From Strigamia acuminata (Eukaryota), in the NCBI GenBank assembly GCA_949358305.1, contig OX442314.1:15810001-15874000 (forward strand): DNA of 64,000 nucleotides, in the 5' to 3' direction. Shown piece by piece: positions 9,501 through 54,259 of the stretch (positions are counted from its first letter, which is position 1; every line of letters begins with the position of its first letter). A program made the translations under genes and the position numbers. The notes under the pieces are model-generated. The model was given only the letters and a program-made list of their open reading frames with translations. It searched no databases and was not told the origin of the DNA.

Positions 9501-12062
9501 AATTAAAAAGGGAAATCTAATTCTCTTTAATTGCAGGGGCAGGATCAAACAAAAGGTTGTTGTCTGGAGGCAAGTCTCACTATCTCCTTTGATTTACCCT
9601 CGAAAAAAAACGACAAGTTTTTGCTTTCAAATCACTAGAAAACAAGTCGTTTAAAACATCGTCTTTAAATTTGAGGCGACTAAACCAAATTGCTTTAACA
9701 TACAATTTACACCATAAAGCAGTGGTTGAAAACACTTGAGCATGTCAAGGGCGTATTAAGGTGAGAAAAGGGCGCCATTGTCTCACTTGCGCTTCTTCCA
9801 AACCAAGACCGGTGTCAACAAACCAATAAGGTCTTAACGCCTTTACTCACGCTAAATTTCTAATAGTTGTTTTTTTTTCCTTCTAAATTTTCACTAAAAG
9901 AAATATCTGCGAGTGCAGAAATTAGTCTTCATTAGTGGCAAATTCTCCGCAGTATCAGTAATGTGATTACAGTAGAAAGCATTTTGTAATTTCTCAAGAC
10001 GAAGCCAAGCATTACACGCACCGAAAAGGGCTAAATAAGAAGAAATGAGTCAGCTCTCTCTATCTTCTTGCTATGGATGTGGCGCAAGGACATTGTGGTG
10101 TTTTCTGAAATGTCTGTCTGGCTGCCTCTTGGCTCGATTAGTATCTACAAAATGTCACCATTGATGGAACATGCTAAATCACAAGGTTGGAATTTGTCTT
10201 AATGTCTTCATTTTAAAAAATGTAGGGGAAAAAAAAAACCATTAAAATCCACGACATCAAAGATGCAGTTAAAGCAATGCTCATAAAAGCGTAACTAGCT
10301 AAAAACACATTAACATGAATAAAAAATGAACGTACCGAAATGGATGAGATATCAACTTACTTTTAATCCAATACTTATACAAGCAGGATAACAAAACTAA
10401 AAGCAGGTCACTATTATTTCCATATATTTTTTTTTTATATATTTTAAAACCTTTAAATCATCGTATGACTGAAATCTCAAGGAAAAGCACGACGCCATTT
10501 TTAGTGTTAAAAATCCTCACCAGACGAGATTTTACGATTCATTATTAATTTTTGCACTTAGCAACCAGAGGGAGAGGTGATTGCACTGTACTAATGTACA
10601 GTTCCATCCCAAGTAAACAAATAAAATAATTATGCTCGCGTAATGTGTACCTTACAAGTGATTACGTTACCATTACGAATTAGATAGGTCATTACACTTG
10701 TTACGATAGAATCTAATTTAAGCTAAACAAAAAAAAAACAAGTAAAAGAAATAGGAGAATTTAAAAATAAGTAGAGTTAAAGGATTAGATGAATAAGACA
10801 CTAGACACGCATGCGCCGAATGAAAGCGAATGTTTGAATACCTTGAGCTTATTTAGAAAACAATAAAATCGTGAGTATTTAATGTTGTTTAAATTTTCAT
10901 GTGTATGGAGTTGGTTAAAGTTATAGGAACAAGTCGTTGTTAGAAACTAGCCCTATTATACATTATTCATCGTTCAAACAAAACATCCGTTAAAGTTGCA
11001 CTTGAATTGAACAAACCTAGCGGACCATGGCGGAAATTCGTCTTTAGAAATCGTACTGTTTCTTGTTTTTTAAATTTGACATAAAAACTTGAACTAGACT
11101 CTCACCCATGTGCATAGTTCTAAAAATATGTTTGGTTTAATAATAATGTTTTCATTCCATTAGCTATTCATTCAATAATGATAAGAAATTGTGAAGAAAA
11201 AAAGCTAAGAGTCAAGTGAAAAATTGTTCTGCTCATCAGACACACTTACAAAGTTGGAATTTGAGTTATTCTATCAAGGGGAAAGAGTCAAACTCTTTGG
11301 TACACAATTCTAGTTTCCGCTTCACAGGACTGTACTGTGTAATGTGTACTTTCCTCAACTACCCTTTAACAAAAAAATAACCAACAAACAAACAAACTCG
11401 GACAACATGTCTTGAAGAGTTAATTAAATTCCAATGAATTAATTATTAATAGCTTGTTCGTAATTACATAAGTTTGAGTAATCACATGAAAAACGATTTT
11501 AATTAAACCGAGTTTTGTGGATTTAAATTGCGCTAACAAACGTACTAATTAGGCTTAGTAGCGTATAATTATAACAATAACCAGGCGATTTTTGCCTCGT
11601 TATTAAGACTGGAAATTGTAATCGATAAGTTTACGATGCAGTTTACAACTCTTTTCAAAGACGCAATTCAAAGATTTATTTACATAATTTAAATATTTAA
11701 GATAAAAAATATAGAATAAAATAAGTGTTCATACCTTTGCACATTCCTTCTTCGTCCCCGGTAATCGGCTGACCAGACTGAATTTTCAGAAGGCAAACTA
11801 GTCCTTGATCGCATTCCCCAAGAAGACCGAATTTACCGCCGCACGTCTCATTGGCGAGGCGGGCACAAGTGAGGCAACAACCGCATGCATCTTTCGTCGT
11901 TCCACCGGCACAATCGGTCGGAGTTTGGCACCGTGAATGGTCACAAGAAGCACACGAATGAGAATCCACCTCACTCACCATAAAGTTTGAAATTAAAAAT
12001 ATAATACACGTCGTTTTAACCGCTGTCTTGACATGAAACAAATTCGCAACGTCAATCAACAT
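6548..12062 (-). CDS. CRIM1: Cysteine-rich motor neuron 1 (CRIM1)-like protein, first two coding exons (11735-12062, 6548-6718); gene continues beyond the left edge
   Basis: Exon 1 has a signal-peptide-like N-terminus plus an IGFBP domain (CASCDHSRC...DACGCCLTCARLANETCGGKFGLLGECDQGLVC...GDEEGMCK) and a GTATGA donor. Exon 2 (EPQDAC...GCNKVDMQCMCNTISTCEDPF...ECEATL) is in matching phase 1 with TTACAG acceptor and GTAAGT donor, and resembles the CRIM1 segment after the IGFBP domain. Confidence 0.85.
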
Positions 12063-12439
12063 TTTTCCGTCGATTAAAAAGTAGGTGAAGTTTAGAAATA
12101 AGTTGTTCGTAGTTGGTAAAAAATTATTCAAAATTCGAAAAAACGCTTTAAGAAGAACGGCGCAAGCAACAAGAAACTAGGTTATATTCAACAACATCGA
12201 GTCCGAAAAAAGAATCAACTTGGAGCAGACTGCCAAGGTTAAAATCGTTTAATTTATCTCACCAGATCTTGAGTGGAGCAGAAAATACGCCACGTTCCCA
12301 CTCATCAGCACTCCGGCGTTGGTTCTCACACGGACGGCATGCGATCTGCTTGAACGAGCCTTCCAGATCATTCAAATCGACCGAACAGCTCGGTAACTTG
12401 CACGCGTAAGTGACAAACTTCCCCATTTACCTGCGCTCA

Positions 12440-16300: not shown

Positions 16301-19300
16301 ACTTCAATGGATGACTCCATTTTCCACAGCCACAACCAATACTTAAAATCCTGCAACAGGGGACTGAAAATTATATGCAATTACCGCGAACTGAGACCAC
16401 CCAGTTTATTTGTAACGGTAGAAGACTTTTTATAAAAAAAAATAAAAAAAAAAGGAGGAGAGATATTTCACTGACTTATGGCGTGCAAAAAAGAAATAAA
16501 TTATCAAAACGTAACATTACTTTCCGCAATTTTTCCAAACCACCATACTTCTCTTAAAGTTTATGTTTTAAAACCCTTCATGTACAACGTACAACTAAAT
16601 TTAAAACTTTCACTAAATAAATTTAATCAAATTTTTATTAATAATAAAACCAAAAAAAAAATTAAAAAAAAGCAAAAAAAAAAAAAAACAATGACTGATG
16701 CAGTAAAAAAAAATTACTTACTTCAGCCACTTCGAGTGCCTTTTGATAGCAAAAAGAAATCAAAAAAATAATAATCAATGTCACTAAAAACCAAAAAAAT
16801 AGACAAATGTCACGCTAAATGTTTATTCATAGTCACACAAACTGCAAATCATCGAATGCAGTAAACAACAAGAAAAAATTTACTGCACTTCAAATCAACT
16901 TTGTGATGTTAGCTCGAGATGTTGACCTGAACGATTTTTTTTTTTTATTCCAAGAACAGAGTTGAAGATCCTACTTAAAATTCAACACAATGATTTGAAG
17001 GCGTGACCATCGAATTACTCATCATCAACCCATGCAGCACTCAATTTGAGCAGTCTCAAAAATTACCAGATGCCCTTCAAATTTGCAGCATACTTTAAAT
17101 TGACCGTGTACCAACTCAAACTGACTGTGTTCCACGCACAAGAGATGACGCGCCCACACTCTGCACAAGATCAAGGTTAAACTGCAGACAGTTGTCTTGA
17201 AAAAACATTCAACAATAACCTCGCCTCGCCCACCACCAGCTTTTTTTCCTGCAAATTTTAACGTTCAGTGAACAGTGATGGATTTCAGTTGGAAATATAA
17301 ACATAAATTCATTAATCATCACAAAATCGATATTTCTTAAATAAATTCCATTCCAACCGAAGATTTTCTACACTGACTGTTGTTTTTTTTTCAAATAAAT
17401 CTATTTATTTATTTATTTAAACCCATCAACATGTCTTTATAGTCAATTACATTTTTAATCTTTCATTCTAGCTTAAGAACAGTTCCAGCGACCTTGAGTC
17501 TGTGTAGACGGAAAAAGCTCATAAATACTGGGCTTAACTAAAAACTATTTGTATAAATGTTTGTCTGAAATGTTGCTGGTCAGCTTTTAACATTTTTTAA
17601 TGTTTTACATGTGCATTCGAAAATAGAAGCGCCATAAATGAGTTTATCATCGATCTGATAGAGGGGGAAAAAACCTGCTAAAAATTTAGCTGCAAAATTT
17701 TGGCACAAACAAGCGAGTTTCTAATTTCGAATGCAGATATTAACTTGAGAAACATGACAAGCTGTTGAAAGTGTTCACGATTTATTATATTGTCTAATTT
17801 TTAATTTGTCGTTAAAACTCGTTTTCTCCTGTTCCGCTTACCTCCTGCTTTGTTCAATTAGTTTGGTCATGGTTTATCGCAATAACAATTCAACTTGATG
17901 ATTTAAATCAGCGTAAATGTCTTTAACGTCCATTTGTAGTATATTTTTTTCACAATTTCAATCAAATACCGGTACATTTTTAAATTTTTATGTACGATAT
18001 TTTAATTTATCACTCACCGTGTGCACTTCTTTGTTCTTCATTCTAGCTTTTTCCAAATTCCTATTTGCAGCTTCGTAATTCGCCAAGCAACGTAAACGGC
18101 GGTATAAAAGATCCTACGAGCAATAACGATTTTTTTTTTAAAAAAAATCATTTATAAAAAATATAAATCAGTTTGCTATCACCTTAGCAGCACTAGAATC
18201 CCTTAAGTAATATCGTAACGTGTCCGATAATTTTAAATCTTCATCCGAAGCTACACGCCCCTCGATTTTCTGAAAACAAATGCAAAAAAACTATAAAATT
18301 GCAAATTTAAACGAATAAAAATAACGGAGGCAATTTACCCTAACTTTTTCAAACGTTTCTGCTACTCTATTCAAAAACCTACCACACAAAAGCAATTTAC
18401 AACTAGAATTTTTAGCTTTTATCTTTACATTTACTTTTCTAGCTCGGTGCAGTCGAGAGTTGCTAACAGCGCCATACCAGTGGAAATTTTTATGTAACTA
18501 TCAGCAACGGCTACAAAAGAACAAAACGTCAAGTTATCGCCATTTTTATTTATATTTTTGTTGGGGTTTATACTTTTATGACATTTGGTCAAACGTTCGG
18601 CTTTGGCCGAAGCGTCCTTCAATCTGGAATGATATTCTAGCAGAAAATTACTTTCATTTTCAAAAAAATCGTCAACATCCTGCAAAGAAATAAAGAAATT
18701 AAATATTCAAGTATGGTATCCTGGAAAACACAAATGTAGCCACCTTCTGTGTCGATGAAAGCAGCATGTCGTCAGCAGACCTGTGCAAAGTTTTCATCCA
18801 GCCTCCAAGTTTCTCTTTCTTGTTTTTGTTTCTGACGCAAAGCTTAAAAAGTAACAACACATTCGAACGGATTGTCTCGAAAATTAAGGAAATTCGTAGA
18901 AAACATTCTTCTTACATCTTGGTCGTATTCCAAAAATACCCTGAAATTATTATCGTGTCTGAAAACCGGATGAGCCGCTAAACGAATAAGAAACACTTCG
19001 TGCATGGCGACAGTCTTTTTGAAAGTGGCAAGATATTCCCTAAAATAAATGTACAGAAAGTCAAGTTTAAAAAAAAATTAACATAACATTCTAATAAGTG
19101 GAATAAAGTGGAAATTTACGCCTCCAATTCCTGCTTCATTTTGCTAAACTCTTCTTTGGTCATCGTTCCTTCACCTTCGCCTAATTTTTGGAGTTTTTCA
19201 CGGGAAGCATCAAAATCGGGACGCGGCGGAGCAGGAGGGATCTAAATCACCAGTAATCAAATTATTTTCCATTTCAATTTTCCAGTTTATAAAAATAATA

Positions 19301-20019
19301 ATACAATATAGCCGGCGTAATCTTCGTTTTCCTCGAACTGATCATGAAGCCAAACAAATTCTTCGTGCTGTCTAACGACAGAAAATTCACTTTTCTGAAA
19401 CTCTGGCAGAGTTGTCTGTAATCAAAATAAGTGTTAATAATCTTTCATTCAATCTTTCGGCACTTTGCTCACCTTCGTGTGCACGGTGAACTTCACTTTA
19501 TCTCGTTCGCTCAACGCATCAGATATATCGACTATCAATGATGAATCAGTTAAATCCACGTTTTCTGACCTTGTGGTTTGCTGAAAAAAATAAACAGGTC
19601 AATTGGTTTTATGACGAAAACGTAAAAAAAAAATAAGAGAGATTACAAATGTATTTAGTTTCCATATTTTTATTCGTAGACTTTTTTTAAATTGTGCATC
19701 GTATTACTGCAGCTCGTACAGTTGTCTGAAACGTTGCAGGAAGCATTATGTTTCATTTAATTGTTGCTTCCTGCATTATTTCGCGTCTAAAGAGTTGTGT
19801 GAGGTTTTTTCGAATCTTTACTACATGTTGCTCTTCAAAATTAATCATTTTTCAAGTTCGGCTTTTTCTCTTCCAACTTACTTTTATTGGCACTTCTGAT
19901 AAAATATCAGGGCTGTCATCTAGTCCGTCCTTTAAAGAAAGACAACAAATATTTAGTAGAGATTAGCTTTTAAAAAAAATAAATAAATAGCAAAAAATCT
20001 AAATTCCACCCACCATCAT
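13302..20019 (-). CDS. SNX6: Sorting nexin 5/6 (PX-BAR), about 15 coding exons
   Basis: Assembled exons give [14 protein letters not shown]...|...[20 protein letters not shown]|...[12 protein letters not shown]...[24 protein letters not shown]...DVDDFFE...[17 protein letters not shown]...[10 protein letters not shown]. Distal exons: 14715-14778 ([21 protein letters not shown]), 13664-13749 ([28 protein letters not shown]), 13302-13355 ([17 protein letters not shown]). Junctions checked are GT-AG and in phase. Confidence 0.95.
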
Positions 20020-20304
20020 GGCTGCTACTATTTCACCGATTCTGCTAATTTACCGATTACTTACTCACGTGATAGTACTCTCGTTCCCAATACGTCGTAT
20101 CTCGGAATTAAATGTCAAATGATTTGTTGCATTTTTAATTTAAATTGTATAAATTATATTTACGGTAAATTATTTCAACAAACTAAATTTTGTCTATATT
20201 TTGAATAAATACTTCAAATTAAATTTATATATTTAATTTTGAAACCGAAAGTTAAAGTTGGGGTGCCATTGACATTTCCGTAGTTTCTCGTTCGATCTCA
20301 ATAG
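20020..20304. promoter_or_regulatory. Bidirectional promoter region SNX5/6 <-> uORF/MKKS
   Basis: Head-to-head arrangement; a + strand splice donor AG|GTGAGA at 20305 marks a non-coding first exon. Confidence 0.55.
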
Positions 20305-20379
20305 GTGAGACTTGGTGTTAATGTTTACCTTTAAATTTAGAGTAAAATTAAATTAATATTTTATTTTTATTGAATAGGG

Positions 20380-20580
20380 ATGTCTGTAAAAGGATCCATT
20401 TACAAATACAGAACTTCAATCGCTTGCCTAGCTGGAATTGTTGCTTTTCATGTAGCGTGGTATCAACTACAATATAATCCAGCTTTCGTGAAGGAACATG
20501 AAAGACAAGAGTTTCCACTTATAAAAATATATAAAAAATATATAAAAAAAGAAGAGAATGAGCACCAGGAGAAAAAATAA
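20380..20580 (+). CDS. 66-aa single-TM microprotein in the MKKS leader, similar to human MKKS uORF product (uMKKS1)
   Basis: Complete ATG-TAA ORF immediately after a splice acceptor (AG 20376-20377). Hydrophobic segment followed by HxxWY-x5-PxF, as in the human uMKKS1 peptide recalled from memory. Confidence 0.8.
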   Translation: MSVKGSIYKYRTSIACLAGIVAFHVAWYQLQYNPAFVKEHERQEFPLIKIYKKYIKKEENEHQEKK

Positions 20581-20695
20581 TATCACACAATAGGCTGATA
20601 AGCATTAGTTTTGTTGTTTTCGTCCTTTAATGTACGATTTGAATAACAATTTGAGTTGCCGGTGATAATTCGTTTAACTATTTTTATTCTAGATA

Positions 20696-22449
20696 ATGTC
20701 CAGAATTAAAATTGACCCTAGACAGGAGTCACAAATAATCCTAAATCCCACGAGTGAAAAGACTTTGCAGAAACAATTATTACTTTGGAAGCATTTAACC
20801 TCTTCATGCTACGGACCGTTTGGTAAAAGCATGTCCGTGCAAAACGTAATTGGTGGCCACGTGAGCATCACAAAGTCAAGTTGCCGATTATTGGAATTAA
20901 TTCGCCCATCCCATCCAATGACACAACTAGTTGTATCTGCTATTAAAAATCATATGAAACGTTATGGGGATTTTGGTCTTTTCGCGACGACTTTAGTGTT
21001 TGAACTACTAGACGCATATGAGAAAACGAACCTGCCCCAGTCCGCTAAATCTATTGCGAATGAATATTTCAGTAGAATAATTTTAAATCACCTATTAGAT
21101 GCAGAAAATAGTTGTTGTTGTTTAAAATTGGATTTCACGTGTGTGCATCAGTTAATGCCAGTTGTGAAATGTATTTTTAGAAGCAAGTTATTCGTATTAA
21201 CTGAAGATGAAATTTGTTTTATATCTAGTTTATCGTTAGAATCGTTTTTCTCACTGCTACCTTGTGATTTGGATCAAAACAATGTTTTTAAATTGGGCAA
21301 ACTTCATACAATACGTCAGGAGGGTGTTTCGATGAAACATTCTAAGTTTATTTCCGGTTTTCTTTATGCTTTACCAATTTCGCAGACAGCTTGGAAAGAT
21401 TTCAACTTGTTAAATTGTAAAATAGCTTTATTCAAAGTGTCCTTAGCTGGGGATTTGTCCTTAACCGATCTTACGATTGAAGTGAATCAAGATCACGCCG
21501 TTAAGGATTGTGTTTTTAAAATGTTGTTTGATTTAGTCGAAAAATTAATCGAATTCAGAGTTGAAATTGTCGCTTGTCAAAAAGTAGTTCATCCTAAAAT
21601 TTGTAAATTGTTAGAAAGTCAAAACGTGATCGTTTTACAGCGTTTGGGTGAAAATGGATGCCAGGAAATTAGTGAATTAACAAGTAAGAGTTTTTTGGCC
21701 AAAATAAGATTAAAAGAGATAACTTAAATTTAAATGAATTTCAGAAAGTGTTCCTATTGCTTCTCTAAATGCCGAAAACATTAGCGAAAATGATTTTGGA
21801 GTTGTTGGAAAAACAGAACTTCTGGCATTGTTTGGAAGAAATTACGTGAGATTTTTTGGATCGCCTGGTACAATAGTACTCTGTCATAACAACGAGGAGA
21901 ATTTGAATGAATTATCAGTAAGAAAAACAAAAAAATTTCGAAATATAAACATTTTATTTCCTGTATTTAATTTCAAATATAGACCGTATTTCAGCAAAGT
22001 TTTCGATCTTTGAAATTGTTATTGCACAACAATAAATTATTCATTGGAGGCTCCTGTTTAGAAGTCCATTTAGCATCAGTAGTAACTGACGAGGTAAATA
22101 TACAATCACAGCACTCAGTAACAATTTACAATATTCAAATATTTTGCAGGTTAATCGATCCAAACGTTTGGAAAATCATGTGCAATCATTAGGTATTAGC
22201 GCGGGACAACTGACAGAAGCTGTAACTACATTTTCAGCCGTTTTAAAAAGAATGGGTTTAAATTTACTCAAAAATAAGGATGTAACGAATGCAGAGCATG
22301 AATGCTGCTGCAGATGTTGCGGCAATTTGAAAATTGAAGAAAATTCAGTACTCGATGTCGCCGTAAGCAAACTGTCGGCATATAAGACCGCGATGGAAAC
22401 TGTATCGATGATACTTAAAATCGGCATTTGTATAATTGACAAAACTTAA
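20696..22449 (+). CDS. MKKS: McKusick-Kaufman/Bardet-Biedl syndrome chaperonin-like protein (BBS6); exons 20696-21683, 21745-21917, 21983-22093, 22150-22449
   Basis: MSRI start; SCYGPFG, GGHVSITKSS, degenerate ATP motif GDFGLF, IALFKVSLAGD, CQKVVHP, GGSCLEVHLA, and C-terminal VLD...KLSA...ILKIGICIIDK, all characteristic of MKKS. Confidence 0.93.
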
Positions 22450-22461
22450 TAAAAATCATTA

Positions 22462-23045
22462 TTATTCAGTGGCTTGTGAAAACAATTGCTGCGCAAATTC
22501 TTCGTCTATAAACTTTAGTTTGTTGCATTCACTTAAAAAACATTCTCTCAGATCTTCTAATGTTTGTGATTCCAAATATCTAACTGACTCGATGTTAGAC
22601 GGTGTAGAGGTGTCGCACGAAGCTGCAGCTAATTTCAAACGATTTTCTAAATCTGTGAATATTTTCGTCACTTCCTCCGACAATCCCGAATTGTTGGAAC
22701 TTATTGCGAGTGACCTACAATAATAAAGTTTGATACATTGTTTTTGTTTTTTATACATACTTTGACATCATACCATAAAATACCACGCAATCTTGCCACT
22801 TTATACACACTCGTGTATCCTATCGAGTAGCCTGTGTTAAATCCCTCTTGTAGGGAAACTTCTTGGCCATCAGTCACGCCGTCTCGATAACCATCCTGAA
22901 ATTAGATGAATTTTAAGTGACAATTTAAAATATCGTAAGGATACAACCATACCTTATAACGGGCATCGATTAATCTCCGATGAGTAGTTTCTTCAGTTGC
23001 AAAAGTATCATCGATGTTCGAATCGCCTTTATCTTTTTGCTCCAT
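22462..23045 (-). CDS. YAE1: YAE1-domain protein; exons 22953-23045, 22774-22895, 22462-22714
   Basis: Deca-GX3-type motif KDGYRDGVTDGQEVSLQEGFNTGYSIGY followed by ARLRGIL; in-phase GT-AG introns. Confidence 0.88.
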
Positions 23046-23149
23046 GTGGATGGAAATTATTATGACGTCATTCCGCATCAACTCCTTGATCCGGGACCTT
23101 CAGTTTGAATGAATGTTCCGTTTTATTCAGTGTCCCATATTCGTGAAAA

Positions 23150-25675
23150 ATGAAATTCGCGAAGTTGACACACATCTTTCAGGTAAGTACCAATATAAGA
23201 ATTCAGCGAACTAAATTCATAATTTTTTAAATATTAATTTCCAGATCCATGATAAAAAATGTGTTGTAAGTAGTGAAATAGATGTTGGCGAATGGAATCT
23301 TTCGTGGGACTGGTTCACCGACGGAATCTTTTTGGTAAGAAATATATATATCGCGTTGAATAACGAATGACTAATTTTTATCAAATAATGTAGATGGTTA
23401 AGGAACTGTTGACCCCAATTATAAAAGAATTTTTACAAGGTACTAAACACATACATTTCAACAACGAATTCGATTCATCTCCCATGGAATTTTTAGCTGG
23501 TAAATAATGCTGTATTCAAAACGCCATGTTTATGAACTAATATGAAAATATGTTATTGTGTAGGTTCACCGTTTCATGTTGCGTATTTTTTTAAAAAGGC
23601 AAATCTATCTGTCAATCCATGTTTAATTAGATGCGAACTAGGTACTAGGAACGAATAATATTTTCTTCATAGTCTTAATTTGTTTTTGCATTCAGAAAAT
23701 AAATATAAACCGGTCAATGTGAGTAGTGTTAAATTGTTCGCAAGTCTTTGCCAGACCTCTCTCACGGATGTTGAAATGCAACAAACATTTTTGAAAAATC
23801 AGGTAAATAAAAGGTTGCAGAAAATCATCACAAATTATAATATTTTATTTATTTTATATATTTGAGCAGCTAAAACCAAATTTTGGAAAGTCCAAATGGT
23901 CACCAGAATCAAATTATGGCATAAGCAGCTATTTCACGAAGACAGATGTGAAAAATCAGATTAAATCACAAGCCATTTCGTAATTACAACATTCATCATT
24001 AAATTGTGGAATAAAACTTACTAAAAATTGTTTATTGATTGAAGTTCCAGAGTTGAGGTTCCATTTGAATTTAAAAACCGATTGAACTGTGAGCAGACAG
24101 AAAATGACACCAAAACTGATTTAATCTCTGTTTGTGATCCATTTGTCAGTATTCAAGAAGATCTAAGAAGGGAGTTGTCTGATGACGATTTCGAAGTTCC
24201 ATTTAAAGAAATCCGAACGACGTCAAATTCAGTAGACCTCAGCAGGAACACTGGAACTACACTCCTTGAAATTCAACCAAACGAGGACCCAACTCCACGC
24301 AAATCAGTCCTCAATGTTTTGTCCAAACACGCCAAAACAGGCGGCGGTAAAGAAGAAAATTACGTGTCTCTCAGTGAAAATGTTTGTTACGATTTCGGTG
24401 AATTGGAAAGTAAAAAGGAACTGGAAGTGACTAATCAATATAAAATACTGAATGTGAAGGATGAAGAGAGTGCCGACAAAGCCAATGAAAAAACGTCAAA
24501 ATATTTTAATTCCAACAAACGGAAATTGGACAATGGTGCTAACAAAGCCATGGACATGAAAACGTTGGATAGTATTTTAAGTGAACTGGAAAAACCTGAT
24601 CCGGTAATCGACAGGCTCATAGCTGAATCCAAAACGAAGAAACTTGCTGCCGTTTTCAAAAGAGATTTCACCGACAGTTCTGGTAAAGATGACAGCTTTG
24701 AATTGGCTAAAAGTAATAGAAGATGCAGAAAGCTGAGAAAGCCGTCCGTTGCCAAAAGAAAAGACGATGGAAGTAAAGTGAAAAAGACGTTTCAACGTGA
24801 TAATGTGAAAAATAAAACACTCTTAGACTGGAAACTAAAAGAAACTCACGCAATAACAGTTCCTGAATGTGATAAATGTGAATCGGACAGTGACAACAGT
24901 TTGCCACCAGCACTTAGGATCGACGAAGACCATCAACCGAGTCGCAGTGATGTTTTAGAAAATTTAAGCGAATTAAGCAAGTCAAACGGGAAAGACACCA
25001 AAGTATATCGTGTGGATGAAATTGATTCTGATCTGATAGAAATTGATATAACCGATGAGAAAATTAGTGTAGTAAAGTGAGTATTAAACAGGTAACAAAA
25101 AAATTTTTTCCTAAAATTAATTTTCTGCTTTTTTTTCTTCAGAGAAATGCAGAATTTGACGACAGAACAACTCGGGAGTATGATTGCGCAAAATAAGGAC
25201 TATTTGAAGGAAATTCTCAAGGGGAAAGTATGCTTTGTTTTTATTTTTATTAAATATTTTCTCCACACGCAAATTGATCCGATTAACTCACTTTGCGATG
25301 TTTTAAAACTTCAAATTTATTAATAACGACTTTTTTTAAATCTCAAGAGTTCTAGTCGTCGACATCAAGATTATATCAAAGGAGGCAAAATAAGAAGGGA
25401 TTTGATCGATCACTTGTTTTTGACCATGTACACAGACAGCCAAGTAGACTTTATAATGGAAACTCTAATGGATACATTTAGCAAGAACACTAAAAAGGTA
25501 AGTCAATACTATTCATTACTGATTGTGCAGAAATTACAGTCTTGGTTTATTTCAGTATAACGATTACCTATTTAAAGTCTTATTAGCTGAAACGCTGATT
25601 AAAATTCTGATGGACTATAAAGATCTAAGTTACGATGAAGCTGAAAGAATGTCATTTTTAGCAAGAATCACGTAG
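23150..25675 (+). CDS. SLX4IP: SLX4IP-like protein with long disordered linker and helical C-terminal domain (10 coding exons)
   Basis: All exons join in phase. N-terminus (WDWFTDGIFLMVKELLTPIIKEFLQGTK...NNEFDSSPMEFLAGSPFHVAYFFKK) resembles the SLX4IP N-terminal domain (WF...V..LL...EYL...EF..S.P...G..F...YF.K). One long low-complexity exon (about 24045-25076) precedes three exons of a folded domain ending at TAG 25673-25675. Confidence 0.65.
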
Positions 25676-28386: not shown

Positions 28387-31300
28387 ATGAGCGAGTTATC
28401 CCCGATTAAGGTGGCAATAAGAATTCGTCCCGTAATCGAGAGGTAAATAAACGAAAATATAATAAAACTTAAAATCTAATGTTTTGTTTTTCATTCTATA
28501 GGGAAAAAAATGAAAATTGTCCATTAGTTTGGACGCCGTCCGGTGATCAAGTTATCTCACTTTACAGCTCCAGACCAACTACGTTTACTTTTGGTACGAT
28601 TACGAAGGGATTTATTAAATTTAAATTCCTACGGAAATTTATTATTACATTTTTAATTTAGATACTGTGTTTGGAGAACAGGCAACCAATGCCGACGTTT
28701 TTCAGAAGGTTGTGCGTCCTGTGATTGATGATTTCTTAAACGGATATAATGGTATTTAAACAAATATGCAAAGCTTGTTGCCTTGAACGTTCAATAACGA
28801 AAAAGTTTTCAAATTTAGGAACGGTATTTGCGTACGGACAAACTGCGTCGGGAAAAACCCACACCATGATGGGCAATGAAATGAACCCGGGGATAATTCC
28901 GATGAGTGTTGATTATATTTTCCAGTTTATTGAAGCGGTAAATTTTGTAAGTTTTGTTTATTTGTTTAAAAGTTAAAATATTTTGTCGTTTTTAGACTCC
29001 TGGGCGAACGTCTTTGCTTCGCTTTTCTGTGATTGAAATCTATAACGAAAATGTAACCGATCTTTTGGCCAGTGACCCGATTCATCTGAAAATATACGAT
29101 AAGGTAAGTAAAATCGTGGGAAGTAGTTCCTTTTCACACCGTAATATTAAATTTATTTTTTGTTTCAGGATGGAACGACACATATAACTGATTTAAGTGA
29201 ACGAGTAGTTACTTCACGCGAGGAGCTATTGCAAGCTCTTATTGAAGGAGAAAGTAATTTATTTTATCATCGTTTTTATTATTATTATTATAATTAATTA
29301 ACATTATTTTTGTGTTCGTGCAGAGAGGAGACATTTTGGAGAAACGTGTATGAACGAAAAAAGTTCTCGATCGCACACTATCTGTAAAATGGTAAATTTT
29401 ATAATTTTTATTTTGGAAAAATGTGCTTATGGATTTATTCTTAACGTATTTTAGACGATTGAGAGTCTTGGATGTAAATTGGCTGACGATAACAGTGACA
29501 CTTCGGTTACCGTATCTCATCTTGTAAGTCGTGACTGCAAAAATTGTTAAAAACGTTGAACCGATTATTATTATTTTTTTAATTTAGAATTTGGTCGATT
29601 TGGCTGGATCTGAAAAGTGTGGGCAAATAGACTCGAAGGCACCACGTTTTAAAGAAGGTTGCAATATCAACCGCTCGTTATTAACATTGAGTACGGTAAT
29701 TTGTAAATTGAGCGAAGGAAATAGGTAAGAAAATATCGTACTGCACTGAAGAACGATTAAGTATTCATTATATTATTTCTTTTTTAGTGTTCACATAAAT
29801 TATAGAGATTCAAAGCTCACAAGGATTTTAAAATCGTCGCTCGGTGGAAATTCTAAAACAACTATCATTTGCAATATTACTCCAGTTGCGTATGACGAAA
29901 GTTTATCTACGTTAAAAGTAAATAGTTAATTTTTTTATTTATTTATTTAACTAGGCTTTTTAGCCTAGTTTAATATTTTAATGTGAAATCTTAGTTTGCA
30001 GAACGAGCCAAAGCAGTAAAAAATAAACCGAAAGTTAATGCCATTTTGGACGAAAATTCTTTGTTGAAGTGCTACGAAAATCAAATTCAACAACTTGAGA
30101 TGAAATTACAGGTTAATTCTCAAAAATTGTCCAGTTCTTATGATTTAAAATATTTTTTTAGAGCACAAAAAAATGTGAACAAGAGAAAATTGAAGAGCAA
30201 AGCAGCTACATAAACCACTTGCAAGAGAAGCTACGGACCTTAAGCGACAAACTTTTAGTATCGAACAGGCCTTTTGGGTTACCAGTCACTGCTGCGGTAT
30301 GAAAGATCTTCATCGACAGTGATTCGGTCATTTTAATGTTTATATTCTTCTTTTAATACTAGGCCCAGTCCAGAAGAGAAACTTGGGGTTGTGCTGCTAC
30401 ATTTAAAAAATTTTCTTTCGAAAGTGTTTTTATAACGGATGTGCCGGCTGTCTTTAATAAATGTAATGAATTATTAAGTTTCTTGTTAAATTTGTGGTGA
30501 TACAATTTTTTTTCGTTTTTGTTGCTACTACCAATATAGCTCTAAGTCATCCAACATTAAACTTTGAACAGCTTGCCAATACGAATAGCCACGATGAGGT
30601 AAGCAAATTAACAGATGTAATAATTTAATATTATACTATTTATTTAATTTCTTCTTTTTTTAGAGTCAGGAAGACTTTATTGGCGATGGAAATAGAGAGT
30701 TGTTTGATGAACTGAATGCAGTCAAAGAAGAACTCTCCTTGAAGAATTCTTTATTGGATGTAAATGTTTTTTCTTTCGAGATTTTTTTGTTACACACACA
30801 AACAGATACAGATATATAGATTTATATTTAAATGAATTAATAGGATTTAACTGGTCAGATTAAGGAATTTTTGAAAGAAGAGTTTGATATGGATATTATT
30901 TTGGACGAAGGTCGAGACAGCCAATTTAATGTAGAGGTTTATTTGAGGAGAGAAATGACAGTCAGTCCAAAAAAAGAGAACCCAGTATGATTTGAAGAGT
31001 TGTTATTTGTGTATTGTGTGTAGCAACATTTGAGTTGTTCTAGGTTGTAACAAAATTGGGAAACTACTCGCACGGGTGTAATAAATGTGCCGAGGAAAGA
31101 GAAAAATTCGATAAGCAAGAAAAAGATCTTTTACATCAAATTGCTGAGTTTACTGTTAATGCCGATGTGCGTATTTAAAAGTGTTTTATATTTTTATTTA
31201 TACATCTTGACTATTGTACAGAAAAATGCAGAAATAATGGATAAACACACCGACCGAATACGGTATTTAGAGAACAAAATTCGGAGTTTGCAACACGAGC

Positions 31301-34300
31301 GGGAGGAAAACGAAAGGGTTAGAAAATTATTTTGCACTTTTGAACGTAAGAGAATTAATTTTTTTGTTTTATTTAGGCTGTTGAAGAAAGATTGAAAGAA
31401 TGTTCAAATGACAACGAAAAAGTAAGAGAAATACTCATAAGCTTAGAAATACAAATTAAAAAAGAATATAAGGAAAATGAGCAAAAAATCCTTGAAAAGT
31501 GTCAAACTATTCGAGAATTAGAAAGCATGCTGAAAGAACGATCGACAAAAGTGATTCTTTTCTTTTTTTTACAAAAAATAAAAAGTAATAAAAGCAATAA
31601 CTGTATTCAAAACTTATTTTTTCAGGAATGTGAAAATCAAATGCATAAAGAGTTGATGAAGGTCCAAAACGAGTTTGCGGATTTGAAGGAAAAATACACG
31701 CTGTTGGTTGAGGTAAAAACTTGTACAAAATTACTATTTTTTTTTACTAATTGTTAAACTACTTTTAGCAACTTCATTGTAGCAGTGAAACGGCAGTTGA
31801 AAAGGATTTATTACAGAAAGAATTAGCCGAATTAAGACAAAACTACTCGGATTTACAAAGTGCTAACAACGTGCGTTATTTTCGTTTCTTTTCTTGATTT
31901 TTCTTAAATTCCAAATTTGATTTATTTTAGACTGAAGTGGTAAGGTCGCTACTACATGAATTGATAGAAAATTTGCCTACAGACGGTGAAGTGCAAGAAG
32001 ATACAAGCGGTCATCGTAACAGAATTTCAGAAATGGAAAAAGTCCTATGCAATGTGCAGACTGGTGACTGCAAGGAGGAACCGTTGGAGATAAAGGTCTA
32101 GAAAAATATGTTGTTTCATTATTTTGTATTTACTAAAGTAATTTTTAGGACTACAAAGCGCAGATACTCGAATTGAAAGAAACCAATCAAATATCTGATG
32201 ATATCATAAGTGATCTCAAAAGTGAAGTGGTAAAGTTGTTGGAAGAAGTCGATGCAAAAGATGAAGAAATTTCGAAATTAAAAGAGTTAGTTGAAACTCA
32301 AGAACAAACGGAGAAAAAAGTTGAAAAGGATGAAAATATTGAAAAGGTGCAATTAACAAATTTCTAATGTTTATTTCAATTGATTTTCGTTTCTTTTTCC
32401 ACTTTTGGTTTCAGCTTTTGGAATTGAAAGAACAAAGTTCAAATTTGAAAATAGAACTTGGAGAATTAAAAGCTGAAGTAGTCGAACGAGTTCAACTTGG
32501 AGTTGATGCAGAATCAAAATACGAAACAGAATTGAACCGTTTACTAGAGACACTCGAACAACTAAAAAAGGAGGTGGAAAATAAACAAACAATTCAAATG
32601 GTGCGGCTGTCAATTATTCGTTCTTTATTGCGATGTTAATTTATTTTTATTATTTTAAAGACACTTGAGAATCAGTATTCAACTATCAAAGAGGAAAATG
32701 CAAATTTGCTTAGTCAACTAGCAGAATTAAATGCCAAAGTAGCTGAAAGTGACCAACTTGCAGATGATGCGCAGTCCAAACATGAAACAGAACTCAAACA
32801 ATTACTTGGAGATGTAGAACAACTTAAAAAGGAATTGGAAAATGGGGAGACAATTCAAATGGTGCAACTGTCAATTATTCGATCTTTTGTGTTATATTAA
32901 TTTATTTTTATCATTTTATAGACACTTGAGAATCAGTATTCAACTTTGAAAGAGGAAAATTCGAATTTGCTAAATCAACTAGCAGATTTAAATAGGAAAG
33001 TAATTGAAAGCGGTGAACTAGTAGATGATGTGAAGTCCAAGCATGAAATCGAACTGGAACAATTACTTGGAGAAATAGAACAACTTAAAAAAGAATTGGA
33101 AAAAGGGGAAAAGGTTCTATTGGCAAGTTATTCAATTTTCTGTGTGTTAATTTATTATTTTATAGATTCTAGAGAATCAACATTCGGAAGAAAATGTTCG
33201 TTTGCAACTCCAGGTAGATGAATTAAGAGCTGAAACGGTTAGACTTGCAGAATGTGGTCAATTTAACACGGACATGGTATAATTAGATAAAATTTAACGT
33301 TTTGCTCTCACTAATTTTTATTTTATTTATTAGACTTTAGAGAAACAATGTACAGAGATGAAAAATGAAAATATAAAGTTACAAAATGAAATGGAGAGAT
33401 TAAAGCAAGAAATAGATGAAAAATCCAAACACGCGGATGAAGCTCAAACAGATTCGACAAAACTGAGTGAAACGAATGCTGAATTGATGCACAGAGTTAA
33501 CCGTCTAGATGGCTTACTGGTTCAGATTGAGATGGAAAGCCAGAAGAAAATATTAGACATGGAAAAGAAATATTACGCGAAAAAGGAAAAAATTGAGGTT
33601 TTATTGACGTTTTAAAAAAGTGTTAACTGGTAATTAATGCTTTTAATTCAATATTTAGTGCTATGAACAACAGGTATATGAACTGCTTGAACGGTATCAA
33701 CAGAAGTCGGAAAATATGAACACGTTGGCTATGGAATTAAAAGAATTAAGCATCACGCTGGAACAACAAAAAACATCAATGAGTGAACTGGAGAATAATT
33801 ATAAAACATGTTCTAAAGAGTTAAGTGCAAAAAAGAGTGAACTTGAATCGTGTATAGAATCAACGAGTAAACTGGAGTGTGATTACGAAGCTCTTACGCT
33901 GGAATTATCGACAAAAACGAGTGAACTTGAACGGTGTACAGAATTAATGAGTGAGATGAAGCAGACTCACGAGCTGCGTATCCAGGAGCTTTCGGACAAA
34001 AGAACTGAACAAGATACAACTATAAGTCAAATCTCGATTATGAAGAAGGGATTCGAGGATCTGAAATTTAAAATGGATCAATTGCAAACGGCTGTTGTTA
34101 AAGTAAATTGTTAGCATAGAAGTTAAATTAAATTAAATTTTTTGAAATTTACTATGTTTAGAAGGAATCTGATGCGAGTAACCTGCCAGTCACTAAATTG
34201 GAAGACGATCTGAAGACTCAAACGGAGAAATTAATTGAAAGCAATCATAAAAATTCAGTAACTATTAAAAATTTCTAAATTCATTTGAATACCTATTTAA

Positions 34301-36094
34301 TCATTTTAAATTTTGCAGATTCTGAAAGAGAAAATTGAAGCAATGGAAATAGAGTTGGGAACACTTCGGCACCAATGTGTTTCGGAAAATGAAGAGTCGG
34401 AAATTAAATCGAGCAAATTGACTAAAGAAATACAAGATCTCGAAGTCAAGAACTCAATCCTTGCCGATGATCTTACGGTACGAATTTTTAGATTTATTTA
34501 TTTGGATTTATTCTTTTCAATTTTTGAATTATTCACATTTCAGAGTTTGTCAAATCGTATTGAGAATTTAAATACCGAAAAGATGGATTTACGAAAGGAA
34601 TTGGACAACAACGCTGCGAGATTGAAATTAGAGCAGCATGAGGAAATATGCCAATATCAAGCCACCGTTGAAACGCTAAAGAATAGGATAATGGTAAAGC
34701 AGGATTTACAATGGCAAAGCCCAGAAAATGATGTATTTTATTTATTTATGAAATTATTTCTTTAGACATTTGCCGACCGTATAAACATTCTAGAAACGGA
34801 GAACAGCAATTTAGAACAGGAAATTGCTTCTTTAAAAAATCAACGTTTTTCTCAGCAAAGTACAACGGAGGAGGTTGAAAATAAGGCTCTTGAGGAGCGT
34901 GTTTCGACCTTAGAACGGGTTAGTGAACGATGGTTAACACGTTTTTTCTGTGTTTTGGTTAATTGTTTCCTTAACATTTTTAGACGCACGAAAATCAAGT
35001 ATTGGAGCTTACGACGGAACATGAAAAGAAAATTCAAGAGTTAGAAATAAATCACGAAAAGAAAGAAGAGAAAATGCTCTATAGGATTAAGTTTCTAGAA
35101 GACCGTGAAGATGTGAGAAATTTTCTCGTTCAGGAAGTTCTCATTTCACTTTACTAATTTTTTTAATCATTAGGAAACCGAACAAATCGTAAATGATTCG
35201 GAGCAAAAGTTGTGGTCAATGATTGATAAAGAAAAAGAGAGACATGAGAAAACTAAATCAGAATTGGAAACTGTGAAAAAGTTGTGTAAGTTTAAATATC
35301 TTTCGCTGCATCGAATAATGTTTCAATAAGGTGTTTGTTTATATTAGTGGAAAATGCACAGCTTACACGGACTCCTTTGCACGAAATTTCTCCGAACAGT
35401 GTGAGCAATGTTTTGTATTCCAAGGAAGAATGTTTAAGTAATCGTGATGAATTTCAAAAAGAGGTTGCGATCAACAAAACAAAACAAGTTTCTCAAGAAA
35501 ATGTAAGTATTTTATATTCCCACAAGTTATATGTTAAAGAAATGTTTATTTTTTTAAACAGGACTTGCAATTGACAGACAGTAACACCGAATTGCTGCGG
35601 AAAGAATGTGAAATAAACACACTGAAGATCGAATTAACTAAACGAGATTCTCCATTCATAGCAAAGTGTGGATTCGTTTTTATTCTTGCAAATTTTAATT
35701 TTGTCGTTAAAAATTTGTGTTTGTTTTCAGAATTGAATTGCTCACTAAGGAACGCGACAGTTGCGTGAAAAGGGAAAAAGAAATGAGGCAACAACTCTTG
35801 AAGATGCAGAAACAGTCATTTAATAGCACCAGTAAGAAATTGAATTTTTTTATTTAGTTATTTTATAGTAGTTATTGTTTTGAGTTATGGTAAAACAAAG
35901 TGATGAAAATTTCTGATTTTTTGAAATTTTTCTTTAAATTTTATCTAGCGAACGAATTTCAACAAGCTGGTAAAACGGCAGCTGTTGCACCAAATTTTGG
36001 ATTAGTTGACTCGTGTAAAATTGAACTGCTGGAAAGTCAATTAAATAAATTACAGCAGCAACTTAAAAAATGTGTTTGTAACAAACAAAAATGA
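28387..36094 (+). CDS. CENPE: Kinesin-7 / centromere protein E-like: N-terminal motor plus long coiled coil, many short exons; exact last exon uncertain
   Basis: [10 protein letters not shown]-loop [83 protein letters not shown], post-motor RRETW motif typical of kinesin-7, then extended heptad-rich exons. Confidence 0.85.
32415..33165 (+). repeat. Tandem exon+intron duplication (about 261-bp period, 3 copies) in the kinesin coiled coil
   Basis: Exons starting at 32661 and 32922 both begin ACACTTGAGAATCAGTATTCAACT; introns 32601-32660 and 32862-32921 are also alignable (GTGCxxCTGTCAATTATTCG...TTAATTTATTTTTAT). Confidence 0.9.
33781..34020 (+). repeat. Intra-exonic 84-bp (28-aa) tandem repeat, about 3 copies
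   Basis: GAGTGAACTGGAG (33781), GAGTAAACTGGAG (33865), GAGTGAGATGAAG (33949); GAGTGAACTTGAA recurs 84 bp apart. Confidence 0.7.
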
Positions 36095-36906: not shown

Positions 36907-39900
36907 TTAGGCGTACATTGTAAGTTTAATCCACTGGAATAAAATAGAAAAAACACCATTGTGACATACTTTAAATTTATTTTTTTTAAATTATATTGCA
37001 TTACCTCATCCAATTGAAAAGTGGCACGGTTGCTTCCTGACGGATCCTTCTCTTTGAATAGTTCTGAGAATACGACGATAAATGTATTAACATATTAAGA
37101 AATCCGTTGCGGGGATTTTAATTTTACCTATTACATGTTTAAGCTTGACAGCGCACATGATGAAATCTTCAAACGTCATTGTGTTGTTTTTATTGGCATA
37201 TCGGAGTGTTAGTACTTTAAGTACGTGCGCATTCAAATGGTAACCTTGAAAGGAATTTTTAAAAATTAATTAAGAAAGTACTACACTCCCAGCCGCGTAA
37301 AATGACCATGATATTTTTTTTATAGATTCCCTTGGCTATGATTAAATTAGGTTAGCGTGAACATTTTATATGACCAGGATAGTACATCGTTTTCAGAATT
37401 ACCTGAAGATGCGAGTGCGTCTCTTAATTGAAATGTCGTAAGACTACCGGTGTTATTTTCATCGTACATCTTAAAAACTCTTTTCCAAGTGGCTATATTG
37501 AACCAGAGGGATTTGAACTCCTCCAATGCTAATTTTCCCGAATCATCTTGCTGTGTGTTTTGTCAAGTTAACATTTTAATTTTCATAATTTAAAAAGTTC
37601 AAATATAAATTTTTAAAAGATACGTCCATCATTGCGACCATTCCGCGACAGAGGTTAATTCCGAAACCGGGGAAATCAAATTCTGTTAAATTAATAAATT
37701 GCAATTATTAATAATTTTCTTAAACTTTGAATTAATTTAAAAAAAAAATACCTTTCTTGAGAACAAAATCTAAAACTTCTTTCAATTCATTGGCGTCAAC
37801 TTCCATATCTTCACCCGCAATTCTTTTGAAGCAATCGCTTATTGCATCTGCAGTGCCGGCTTCAGCCGCCTTAACTTCGTCCACCTTTTTCAAATATTAA
37901 ACATTATTTATTAGAAAAATAGAAAGAAAATGGTTTTCCTATCGTACCACATTTTCATCAGCCTCGTTTACTAAAATTTCGTCATCGTGTTCACTTGAAA
38001 ATTACAAAACAAAACGAAAAAAAAACATTTTAAAAATTGATATTTTGTCCATGCTAGCAAATAACTAACTGCATCTCGTGCTTCTTTTCGCTGTATACTC
38101 TTAAGATAAAATCCCCTGGTTGATGTGGCTCAAACGTTGATGGAACGACGCAGTATGTTCCAGGCGCTAATTTAAATCGTTGACTCACTTCGCGTAAATT
38201 AGTGAACGAGTCAACTTTAGCGGTAGATGCTGTGTATTCGAAGAACTTTCTTGGCAGAGGACGAGGCGCTGAATTTGGATTTTTTAACTAAAAGTAGAAA
38301 ATCCAAAATCTAAAAAAGTCCTCTAAAATATATGTATATATATTTAACCACATACGTGGTAAAGAACAAATCCAATTGTAAGTGCAGCTATTCCCATTTT
38401 CCTTTTGGCTCGTCGATTTTTCTGCATCAGCGATACAATCATAGTGCACGTCTGCTCATCTTCCTCCTCATCCGGGTCGTCTAATGTGATTCTGTATTGT
38501 GGATTGACGGCAAAAGTTTCTAAAAATATACAATTTTATTAGACGATAAGCGAAACAATTAAAAGTTGACTTACCTATGTGATTTCTACATCCTCCAGCT
38601 GTGACACCTTTCACCCAGGACCCATCAAAATTATGCGTTTCCCAGCACTTTTTTGGTTCATCCAATGAATCAGGGCTCAAATTGCAAATCTCAAGCTCGA
38701 CAAAGTTTTTAAGGAAATCCGCAAACGACATCCTATTGGTCATAACAATTTTATTCAAAACTTTAATTGATTTAATTGATTTCTTACCAAAACTCCCCAT
38801 CCGCTTCAAAAGTGATTCCAAGTTGATCTTTTTCATCAGCAGGAATGTAATTCCATTCCCGAGACCTACAACATTTATTTAACCATTTCAGATAATTAAC
38901 AGTTACCTAACTTGTAAGTAAATGCGAAATGTTTAATAACTTGTCGCTCCACGGTCCGTTCCATTCAGCTTCGTTTCCCCATGGATTTCTGATTCGAACC
39001 AACGGAATCTTGCCACTTACGCGTGGGGTTTTAATATCCACCTGACAATTCACAACACGCTAGTTAATAACTCTAATTAATTGACATATTCCGACATAGT
39101 AATCACCATTTTTACACACGTTACACTGTACGCGTGACCCTTAATTAACCCGTTTGGCAATCGAGCTTCTAGTGGTTGACCTGCTTCACCCGGAATAGAG
39201 CATCCCATTAAAGATGATCTGTCGTACGCTTTCGACATGATAGTAAACAAATTCGGAGGTGCCTGAGAAAGACTGTACTCTTCGGTCAATCCTCCCGTGA
39301 AATCGCACATTGCCTCGGCCATCTTCCCTGCTTTAAGGGATTCGTAGGAGCCATGAAGCCTTAATTAAATTTAGAAAATGTACCGTATTTATATTAACCT
39401 AAAAACTGTATTACTTTGCGTAAGCTTTCTCTAATAACGCGCTCCAAAATTCGTTGTTGTCTTTGGATTGAAGAAAAACTAGTTTTCCATAATAAGTGGG
39501 CAAACGGTCGTCGACAACCACATCAATCCATTTTCCGTACTGCCAAAATCTATACGAAAAAAAAGTAAACACGCAATTGAATGTTTTGTTTTTTGGAAAT
39601 GGGTTAATTGCAGTACCTAAAATGAAATATTCCCGCATATTTTTTGCTGCGCATGAACCCTTGGTCAGGTGGTACAACGCGATGGAATAGCTCTGTGTTT
39701 AAGGTCAAGTTGGCAACAGCAGCCAACAACCAACAATCTCCTGTTGTAATTTAAAATTAAAACTTTGATTAATATCTCGATCTCAAAGTAGATAAACAAA
39801 CAAAATGTTGTACTCTTGTTGTTTTAATTTAGAAAGAAGTTTAAATTCGTATTCTCTTACTCCGTGCCAAAACCAATTGCTTCCATGAATGTACAATTGG

Positions 39901-47838: not shown

Positions 47839-48660
47839 TTTTATTTTTCACACAGCATAAAAACGAGTAGCCGTGTAACCGCCATTTATTTGGACTTGAC
47901 GTTATAACTCTGAAACTCTAAATATATTGTGTTTTTTAACTGTTGATTGTACAAGTTGATTTATATTTATCACCGTCGCCATAATTTTTATTAGCATTAA
48001 TATGATACGTCTTTGTTAAAACTTTAGACAATAATAAAAAAAAATTTGATCACTTCCGATTCACGATTCCACAATTTCACCGTGTGTGGCGTGGCGTACT
48101 GCGTCAACTGACCAACTTCTACCCTCCGTCTCCTGATTTTCAAGATTATTGACTTATTTCCTTTAATTAATCTGTATTGTGATCAATTAGATGTAAGTTG
48201 GAGTACTAATTCCAGAACATAAACATCAATTCTCCCGCAAAATCAGTTTGATTGTGTGTGTATAGATTGTACGGTAAGGTGAGCCAGTTTGAACCACCGA
48301 AGCATGATATCACTCGAACCACTGAATTGAACGTCGTGGTACAAAAAAACCATAAAGTCTGTTTTTCGGTTTCTCAAATGTCCAAGTGTGTATTTGATTT
48401 TGAGGCGAAGCAAAATATTAATTTAGATTCCATTGTATTTAGCTTTGGATTAATTAATGTTTCGTTCGAAAAAATAATTTTTTGTTTGGCAGATTCAATT
48501 GATTTAAAAATTTAAAGAAAGCTTTCGATTTTTTAAGAAACTTATTATTTCGTATAGTAATTTGTTTAGTGAATTTTTAACGGATCCGGTTAAATTTTTA
48601 TTTTATTTCCGGTTATACAGGTTACACGACCGAGGACTGAAAACGCTTGACTGATTCAAA

Positions 48661-54082: not shown

Positions 54083-54259
54083 TCAATACGGGGATTTCGA
54101 GAGCAACTCGATCCGTTTTTGAGTCTCAACAAGTTTATTAGTTAAATGTTCACGTCGCTTTTTCAGATAGTCTATTCTCCATTCTTTAACCATGTAACCG
54201 ACAAATACTCCGGATAAAAATGATGTAGCAAGCACCAAGACGAAAACGTTTCGATTCAT
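54083..54259 (-). CDS. MTLN: Mitoregulin-like 58-aa mitochondrial micropeptide
   Basis: MNRNVFVLVLATSFLSGVFVGYMVKEWRIDYLKKRREHLTNKLVETQKRIELLSKSPY aligns ungapped with human mitoregulin as recalled (FxSGVxxG...R..YL..R...L..KL..TQK...L); spliced 3' UTR (intron 53985-54060). Confidence 0.85.
   Translation of the reverse strand: MNRNVFVLVLATSFLSGVFVGYMVKEWRIDYLKKRREHLTNKLVETQKRIELLSKSPY

Follow-up and report, generated by a model that had tools for sequence, protein, structure and literature searches.

The leader of human MKKS encodes proteins in its own right, and the locus described here raises the question of whether this arrangement, a microprotein followed by a chaperonin on one message, also exists in an invertebrate. 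The human microproteins are uMKKS1, of 63 aa (Q9HB66; LOC128706665; micro-MKKS63), and uMKKS2, of 50 aa. LOC128706665 is an ORF within the human MKKS 5' UTR (bioRxiv 2024.10.01.615885), and the microprotein is described as conserved across mammals (PMC11837024). It is mitochondrial, and its knockout lowers respiration; it was recently reported as the dominant product of the MKKS locus, as necessary for microglial respiration and as lowered in Alzheimer's brain, and a reanalysis of proximity-labelling data points to the outer membrane (PMC13577902). The window analysed here is a stretch of 64,000 nucleotides in which a 66-codon ORF lies upstream of a chaperonin gene. It appears fairly probable that the two, uMKKS1-like and MKKS-type respectively, form a single six-exon unit which yields mostly microprotein and little MKKS/BBS6, and which is toggled at its second intron.

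The chaperonin gene was modelled on the forward strand as four coding exons encoding 523 aa with no internal stop. Exon 3 (20693-21683) begins with a 3 nt leader, followed by the ATG at 20696 (A at -3), and carries c.1-988. Exon 4 (21745-21917, 173 nt) ends at c.1161 and exon 5 (21983-22093, 111 nt) at c.1272, while exon 6 (22150-22453) contains the stop at 22449 and an AATAAA at 22448-22453. The Pfam family Cpn60_TCP1 matches exon 3 (E=1e-26), a C-terminal stretch of the same family in exon 6 lies below the curated cutoff, and a PDB search returned group II chaperonins. The gene thus has the intact Cpn60/TCP-1 frame of MKKS/BBS6, a family to which BBS10 and BBS12 also belong.

Intron positions help to distinguish between these relatives. 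In the model, introns follow c.988, 1161 and 1272, in phases 1, 0 and 0. Human MKKS has introns after c.985 and c.1161, enclosing an exon 4 of 176 bp (c.986-1161; PMC5618670), and its last exon begins at c.1273 (PMC11291329); it has six exons, four of them coding, for 570 aa (PMC5534436). The gene in the window shares the four coding exons and the introns at about c.985, 1161 and 1272, compared by coordinate and not by alignment, and this agreement constitutes the strongest new indication of an MKKS identity. Human BBS10, in contrast, encodes 723 aa in two exons, both coding, and human BBS12 encodes 710 aa in two exons, one coding (PMC5534436); at 523 aa the protein here is nearer to MKKS than to either. 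The ESM Atlas points the other way, since a cluster named BBS10 headed the best three for the 329-aa first coding exon (0.94), although the name is automatic and no alignment underlies it. Two protein searches with this exon returned no homologue and no MKKS orthologue. The sequence-only reading had called the gene MKKS. The intron positions, exon count and length uphold that name, the Atlas label and the blank searches do not, and by its introns the gene is very probably MKKS/BBS6.

The small ORF at 20380-20580 (forward strand) is present and complete as that reading had it, running for 66 codons from an ATG with G at -3 to a TAA. Out-of-frame ATGs inside it, at 20450, 20498 and 20558, open frames of 1, 8 and 11 codons. 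Shuffling 20020-20695 produced an ATG-started ORF of at least 66 codons in 98 of 3000 trials; the length by itself is therefore modest evidence and would suit a chance frame. A codon-usage score ranked the ORF 46th of 73 and did not single it out as coding. This score was dropped as uninformative because the mitoregulin ORF, the control, was likewise below zero.

The encoded protein is predicted to have a single transmembrane helix at codons 12-30 (20413-20469), following a basic N-terminus. Mean hydropathy is 1.9 over the 15 residues from residue 12, residues 1-12 carry a net charge of +3, and a single-sequence AlphaFold2 model of low confidence (pTM 0.30) places a helix at residues 4-32. The helix closes in H24-x-A-W27-Y28. 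In its 66 aa, basic N-terminus and one predicted transmembrane helix, the protein resembles uMKKS1, which has about 63 aa and the same features. Among 250 short ATG-started frames in the window, the small ORF is the only one in which H-x-[GA]-x-[YF] follows a hydrophobic stretch, a motif picked after the sequences had been viewed; this argues against an accidental resemblance.

In the ESM Atlas, the best cluster for the small ORF is 'uncharacterized LOC128706665 homolog', a mostly chordate cluster of 63 aa with a score of 0.95 (215 of 256 features; recognition 2910). A second chordate cluster also scored 0.95, a value that shuffled proteins attain about once in 100. That the top cluster among 7.7 million should represent the single family known to be encoded in the MKKS leader speaks against coincidence. 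A further cluster, dominated by arthropods and named 'hypothetical protein' (76 aa, 77 members), scored 0.93; this likeness comes with neither alignment nor genomic context, but suggests that invertebrate relatives of the microprotein are already in databases.

The human uMKKS1 peptide as given in the earlier note agrees with the published sequence (PMC7066179, supplementary file 3), and inspection by eye bore out the eight ungapped identities over 36 residues that had been listed (M1, S2, Y10, H24, W27, Y28, P34 and F36), an identity of 22%. The binomial tail for 7 identities in 35 is 0.004-0.055 at assumed chance rates of 6-10%. A histidine-anchored comparison with human uMKKS2, also by eye, gave 5 of 35; judged by language-model features together with shared residues, the small ORF stands nearest to uMKKS1. 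In human uMKKS1, human uMKKS2 and the small ORF alike, the hydrophobic stretch ends in His-x-small-x-Tyr (by eye; PMC7066179), and this common ending suggests that the two human proteins are tandem paralogues.

A word-seeded homologue search with the small ORF gave no candidate, Pfam no family above cutoff, a PDB sequence search no significant match (best E=1.9) and Foldseek, run with the low-confidence model, no match. Of the pattern matches from two metagenome scans, 0 of 64 were confirmed in one and 0 of 593 in the other, the latter being that for the small ORF, and exact look-ups found neither the small ORF nor the chaperonin. As alignment searches yielded no homologue of either protein, no E-value attaches to the orthology of the microprotein or of MKKS. 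The low identity and the blank alignment searches are what an unrelated membrane peptide would give. Of the earlier identification with uMKKS1, the Atlas match, the residue match by eye and the position upstream of the chaperonin hold, whilst these alignment searches recovered no relative; on those three grounds, a place with human uMKKS1/LOC128706665 is supported for the small ORF.

If the two ORFs share a message, the leader must be spliced in a particular way. The splice dinucleotides claimed for it are all in place: GT at 20305, AG ending at 20377, GT at 20632 and AG ending at 20692. They delimit a predicted non-coding exon 1 (20260-20304), which coincides with a patch of 50% GC within an ATG-free stretch (20230-20304); a predicted GT-AG intron 1 of 73 nt (20305-20377); a predicted exon 2 of 254 nt (20378-20631) with the whole small ORF inside; and a predicted intron 2 of 61 nt (20632-20692). 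All lie on the forward strand. Sites were scored with a matrix for which the sorting-nexin and chaperonin models, themselves predicted from DNA, supplied 15 donors and 14 acceptors. The outer pair is strong, with donor 20305 at 7.9 bits, among the top 1.2% of 6605 GT sites, and acceptor 20692 among the top 3.9% of 5970 AG sites. The inner pair is weak (acceptor 20377, 0.9 bits, top 17%; donor 20632, top 16%), though both fall inside the range that the training sites span under leave-one-out scoring. Donor 20662 outscores 20632 but was rejected, as it would leave an intron of 31 nt, shorter than all 14 modelled. Thirteen of those 14 are 56-84 nt long, a range into which both leader introns fall. 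The good acceptor ends 3 nt before the chaperonin ATG, so that a donor further upstream is required. With two leader exons, the predicted layout comprises six exons, four of them coding, as in human MKKS, and at the DNA level the uMKKS1-like ORF occupies its own predicted exon upstream of the chaperonin start exon.

Between the stop of the small ORF and the chaperonin ATG lie 115 nt, or 54 nt once 20632-20692 is spliced out. A uMKKS2 of 50 codons would not fit into this gap; neither the three forward frames of 20020-20700 nor the 250 short ATG-started frames found across the window contain a second such ORF. Candidate weak 3'-end signals are found at 20576-20647 (forward strand), consisting of two non-standard hexamers (20576 and 20642) together with a G/T-rich 16-mer (20608-20623), equalled in richness by 835 of 127968 windows. 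Neither AATAAA nor ATTAAA occurs between the small ORF and the chaperonin ATG; AATAAA is present in three of four other stretches scanned downstream of stops. Rfam has no match in the window, and the spacer folds no better than its shuffles (z = -0.17).

Upstream, on the reverse strand, lies a divergent sorting-nexin gene (18018-20019), which we take to be SNX5/6-like. It was modelled partially in 12 exons, with 341 codons free of stops; its PX match is partial and below cutoff (E=0.0018). Between its ATG and donor 20305 lie 286 nt. The interval includes an AT-rich stretch, with 15% GC over 20140-20259 (40-nt windows) and GC-richer patches on either side, and 20100-20259 is likely to be a bidirectional promoter core common to the sorting-nexin gene and the MKKS unit. 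A promoter scan was disregarded because its model is bacterial.

The window has about 32% GC, introns near 60 nt and dense genes, and is probably part of a compact invertebrate genome. In a genome so compact, adjacency alone says little about co-transcription. Contigs from two sequencing runs of one study span the locus, with introns kept and no splice joints; one record covers 19200-21091 with 0 differences, another 19200-23600 with 8. Either run may be the source of the window, and the contigs therefore argue only against a misjoin. A second mapping to 20230-21000, at 80%, placed no contig, which may be a filter effect. The chaperonin exon has seven variant sites, four synonymous and three non-synonymous, too few for a selection test. 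None fell in the portion of the small ORF that was compared, a stretch of it having been passed over as a repeat.

Other genes in the window include a 98-aa ORF (22462-22758, reverse strand), apparently a last exon, which lies tail to tail with the chaperonin gene, its stop 12 nt from the chaperonin stop, and has no Pfam match. At 28388-35300 (forward strand), exons for a kinesin motor precede a long coiled coil, in what is presumably a CENP-E-like gene. A calpain of the classical type, whose exons encode the protease, domain III and EF-hands, lies at 37350-39364 (reverse strand), and an exon with an IGFBP domain (E=8.4e-09), which we assume to be CRIM1-like, at 11697-12176 (reverse strand). 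The mitoregulin ORF (54083-54259, reverse strand, 58 aa; Pfam PF22002, 44.6 bits, cutoff 27) would be a second mitochondrial microprotein in the window. It is apparently stand-alone, with ATTAAA and AATAAA past its stop, and is convergent with a gene at 48655-53647 (forward strand) encoding an F-box and apparent leucine-rich repeats.

The alternative that survives best, though it is unlikely, is that these are two separate genes of one ORF each. The microprotein mRNA would then always end near 20600-20660, and the chaperonin would have its own start in the gap or receive a leader by trans-splicing at 20692. The non-standard hexamers and G/T-rich 16-mer in the gap, the weakness of donor 20632 and the very tight packing of the window's neighbours are all in keeping with this. 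Against it, a 3' UTR would have to share 115 nt with a promoter and a spliced first exon. At 25-33% GC, moreover, the gap is unlike the core at 20140-20259, and it contains no canonical poly(A) signal. As for trans-splicing within an operon, nematodes are the usual hosts of operons, and the EF-hand calpain in the window speaks against a nematode.

Nor is it likely that the genes are homologous to the human pair but that splicing switches output between them, MKKS being made from an isoform of its own. This could come about by skipping of exon 2 (20304 joined to 20693), as the sequence-only reading had proposed, or by use of an acceptor within the small ORF. The best-scoring acceptor of the leader is in fact the AG ending at 20455 (site 20436-20456; 9.2 bits, top 0.9%), and its use would remove the start codon of the microprotein. 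Skipping would likewise suit the two weak sites flanking exon 2 between strong outer ones, and the skipped leader would have no upstream AUG, where inclusion gives four. Nevertheless, the weak scores are within the range of the training introns, and the T-rich stretch encoding the helix may simply mimic an acceptor. In addition, human isoforms are reported to part at the exon 2-3 junction and not through loss of exon 2 (PMC13577902).

An accidental match, whether of an unrelated membrane peptide, a chance frame or a chaperonin that is a BBS10-type paralogue, as the Atlas label for the first coding exon would have it, is highly improbable given the identity of the top Atlas cluster, the three MKKS-type introns and the sole occurrence of the helix motif.

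We therefore return to a single message carrying both ORFs, which is the likely arrangement. Transcription would start near 20260, from the promoter held in common with the divergent sorting-nexin gene. On exon 2 the AUG of the microprotein comes first and has G at -3, so that most ribosomes would make the microprotein. MKKS would be reached only by leaky scanning combined with reinitiation after the three short internal ORFs, and this chaperonin of BBSome assembly would thereby be kept scarce. The microprotein may insert in a mitochondrial membrane by its one helix and support respiration, most likely through complex IV assembly; for the human protein, an association with components of complex IV or with its assembly factors is predicted (bioRxiv 2024.10.01.615885). 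Such scarcity of MKKS matches the human data on repressive uORFs and a dominant microprotein. Mutation of the MKKS uORF starts raises output from an MKKS reporter (PMC11837024, reporting Akimoto 2013), and repression by the uORFs is partly sequence-dependent (PMC7530721).

The balance between microprotein-only and long transcripts would most likely be set at intron 2, with splicing from the weak donor 20632 competing against 3'-end formation, for which the signals in the gap can be read as weak sites. By analogy with the human locus, intron 2 (20632-20692) is likely to be the decision point between short and long transcripts. The stop of the small ORF is 51 nt before the exon 2-3 junction, on the edge of the 50-55 nt rule for transcript decay. 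Human MKKS is among the transcripts predicted to be polycistronic and immune to decay (PMC3951408), three of its seven annotated isoforms encode the microprotein only (PMC13577902), and polyadenylation signals lie in its leader (PMC11837024).

The pairing of the microprotein with MKKS is likely, by these sequence comparisons, to be older than the vertebrates. The stronger claim of the earlier note, that it predates the protostome-deuterostome split, depends on the animal being a protostome; if it is an invertebrate deuterostome, the dating shrinks to 'older than vertebrates'. A bolder proposal, towards which we lean slightly on the side of doubt, is that a six-exon message was present in the bilaterian ancestor and has been kept because it provides an abundant respiratory microprotein together with a throttled, scarce cilia chaperonin. 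The window would then show that message pared down to a single uORF, 115 nt of spacer and one weak intron of 61 nt as the toggle between the two products.

[quoted passage not shown] What is new here is an invertebrate locus of like layout, which extends a known system and is not a new kind of biology. An invertebrate uMKKS1-MKKS pair was not found in the literature that was searched, nor is one described in the accessible portions of PMC8448870 and bioRxiv 2025.07.27.667088, although the species range given in PMC7530721 (Figure 2a and supplement) may already extend to invertebrates. If the reading is right, an invertebrate copy in the same position and with the same predicted layout dates both the protein and the message to before the vertebrates. 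It also singles out Y10, H24, W27, Y28, P34 and F36 as residues worth mutating, and the locus offers a natural reporter of small size with which to ask why one transcript should keep a mitochondrial protein together with a ciliary one.

The predicted unit, probably an invertebrate's, differs from its mammalian counterparts in several respects. The human locus has uMKKS2, which is absent from the leader here, where only the uMKKS1-type ORF stands ahead of the 115-nt gap. In the mouse, an MKKS leader is divided among exons contributing 112, 49, 228 and 421 nt, the last of which holds uMKKS2 (PMC4568590); uMKKS1 presumably lies on that of 228 nt. The corresponding leader of exon 3 here is 3 nt, and exon 2 is 254 nt. 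Introns of the chaperonin unit, at 56-73 nt, are unlike those of the human locus, and the C-terminus of the small ORF is rich in lysine and glutamate, unlike that of human uMKKS1. BBS6 itself was not found in the insects examined by one survey (PMC12491567). The leaders of SLC35A4, MIEF1 and ASNSD1 also place a uORF protein ahead of an apparently unrelated main ORF, as here (bioRxiv 2021.06.10.447896), but these proteins belong to other families and other host genes. With human MKKS, the likeness is closer. There too, a membrane-protein ORF, contiguous in the genome, has its exon ahead of the one in which MKKS begins (PMC13577902), as is predicted here. The two loci agree in six exons, four of them coding, the two leader exons here being predicted, and in matching intron positions and phases, and their small proteins can be laid against each other without a gap over 36 residues.
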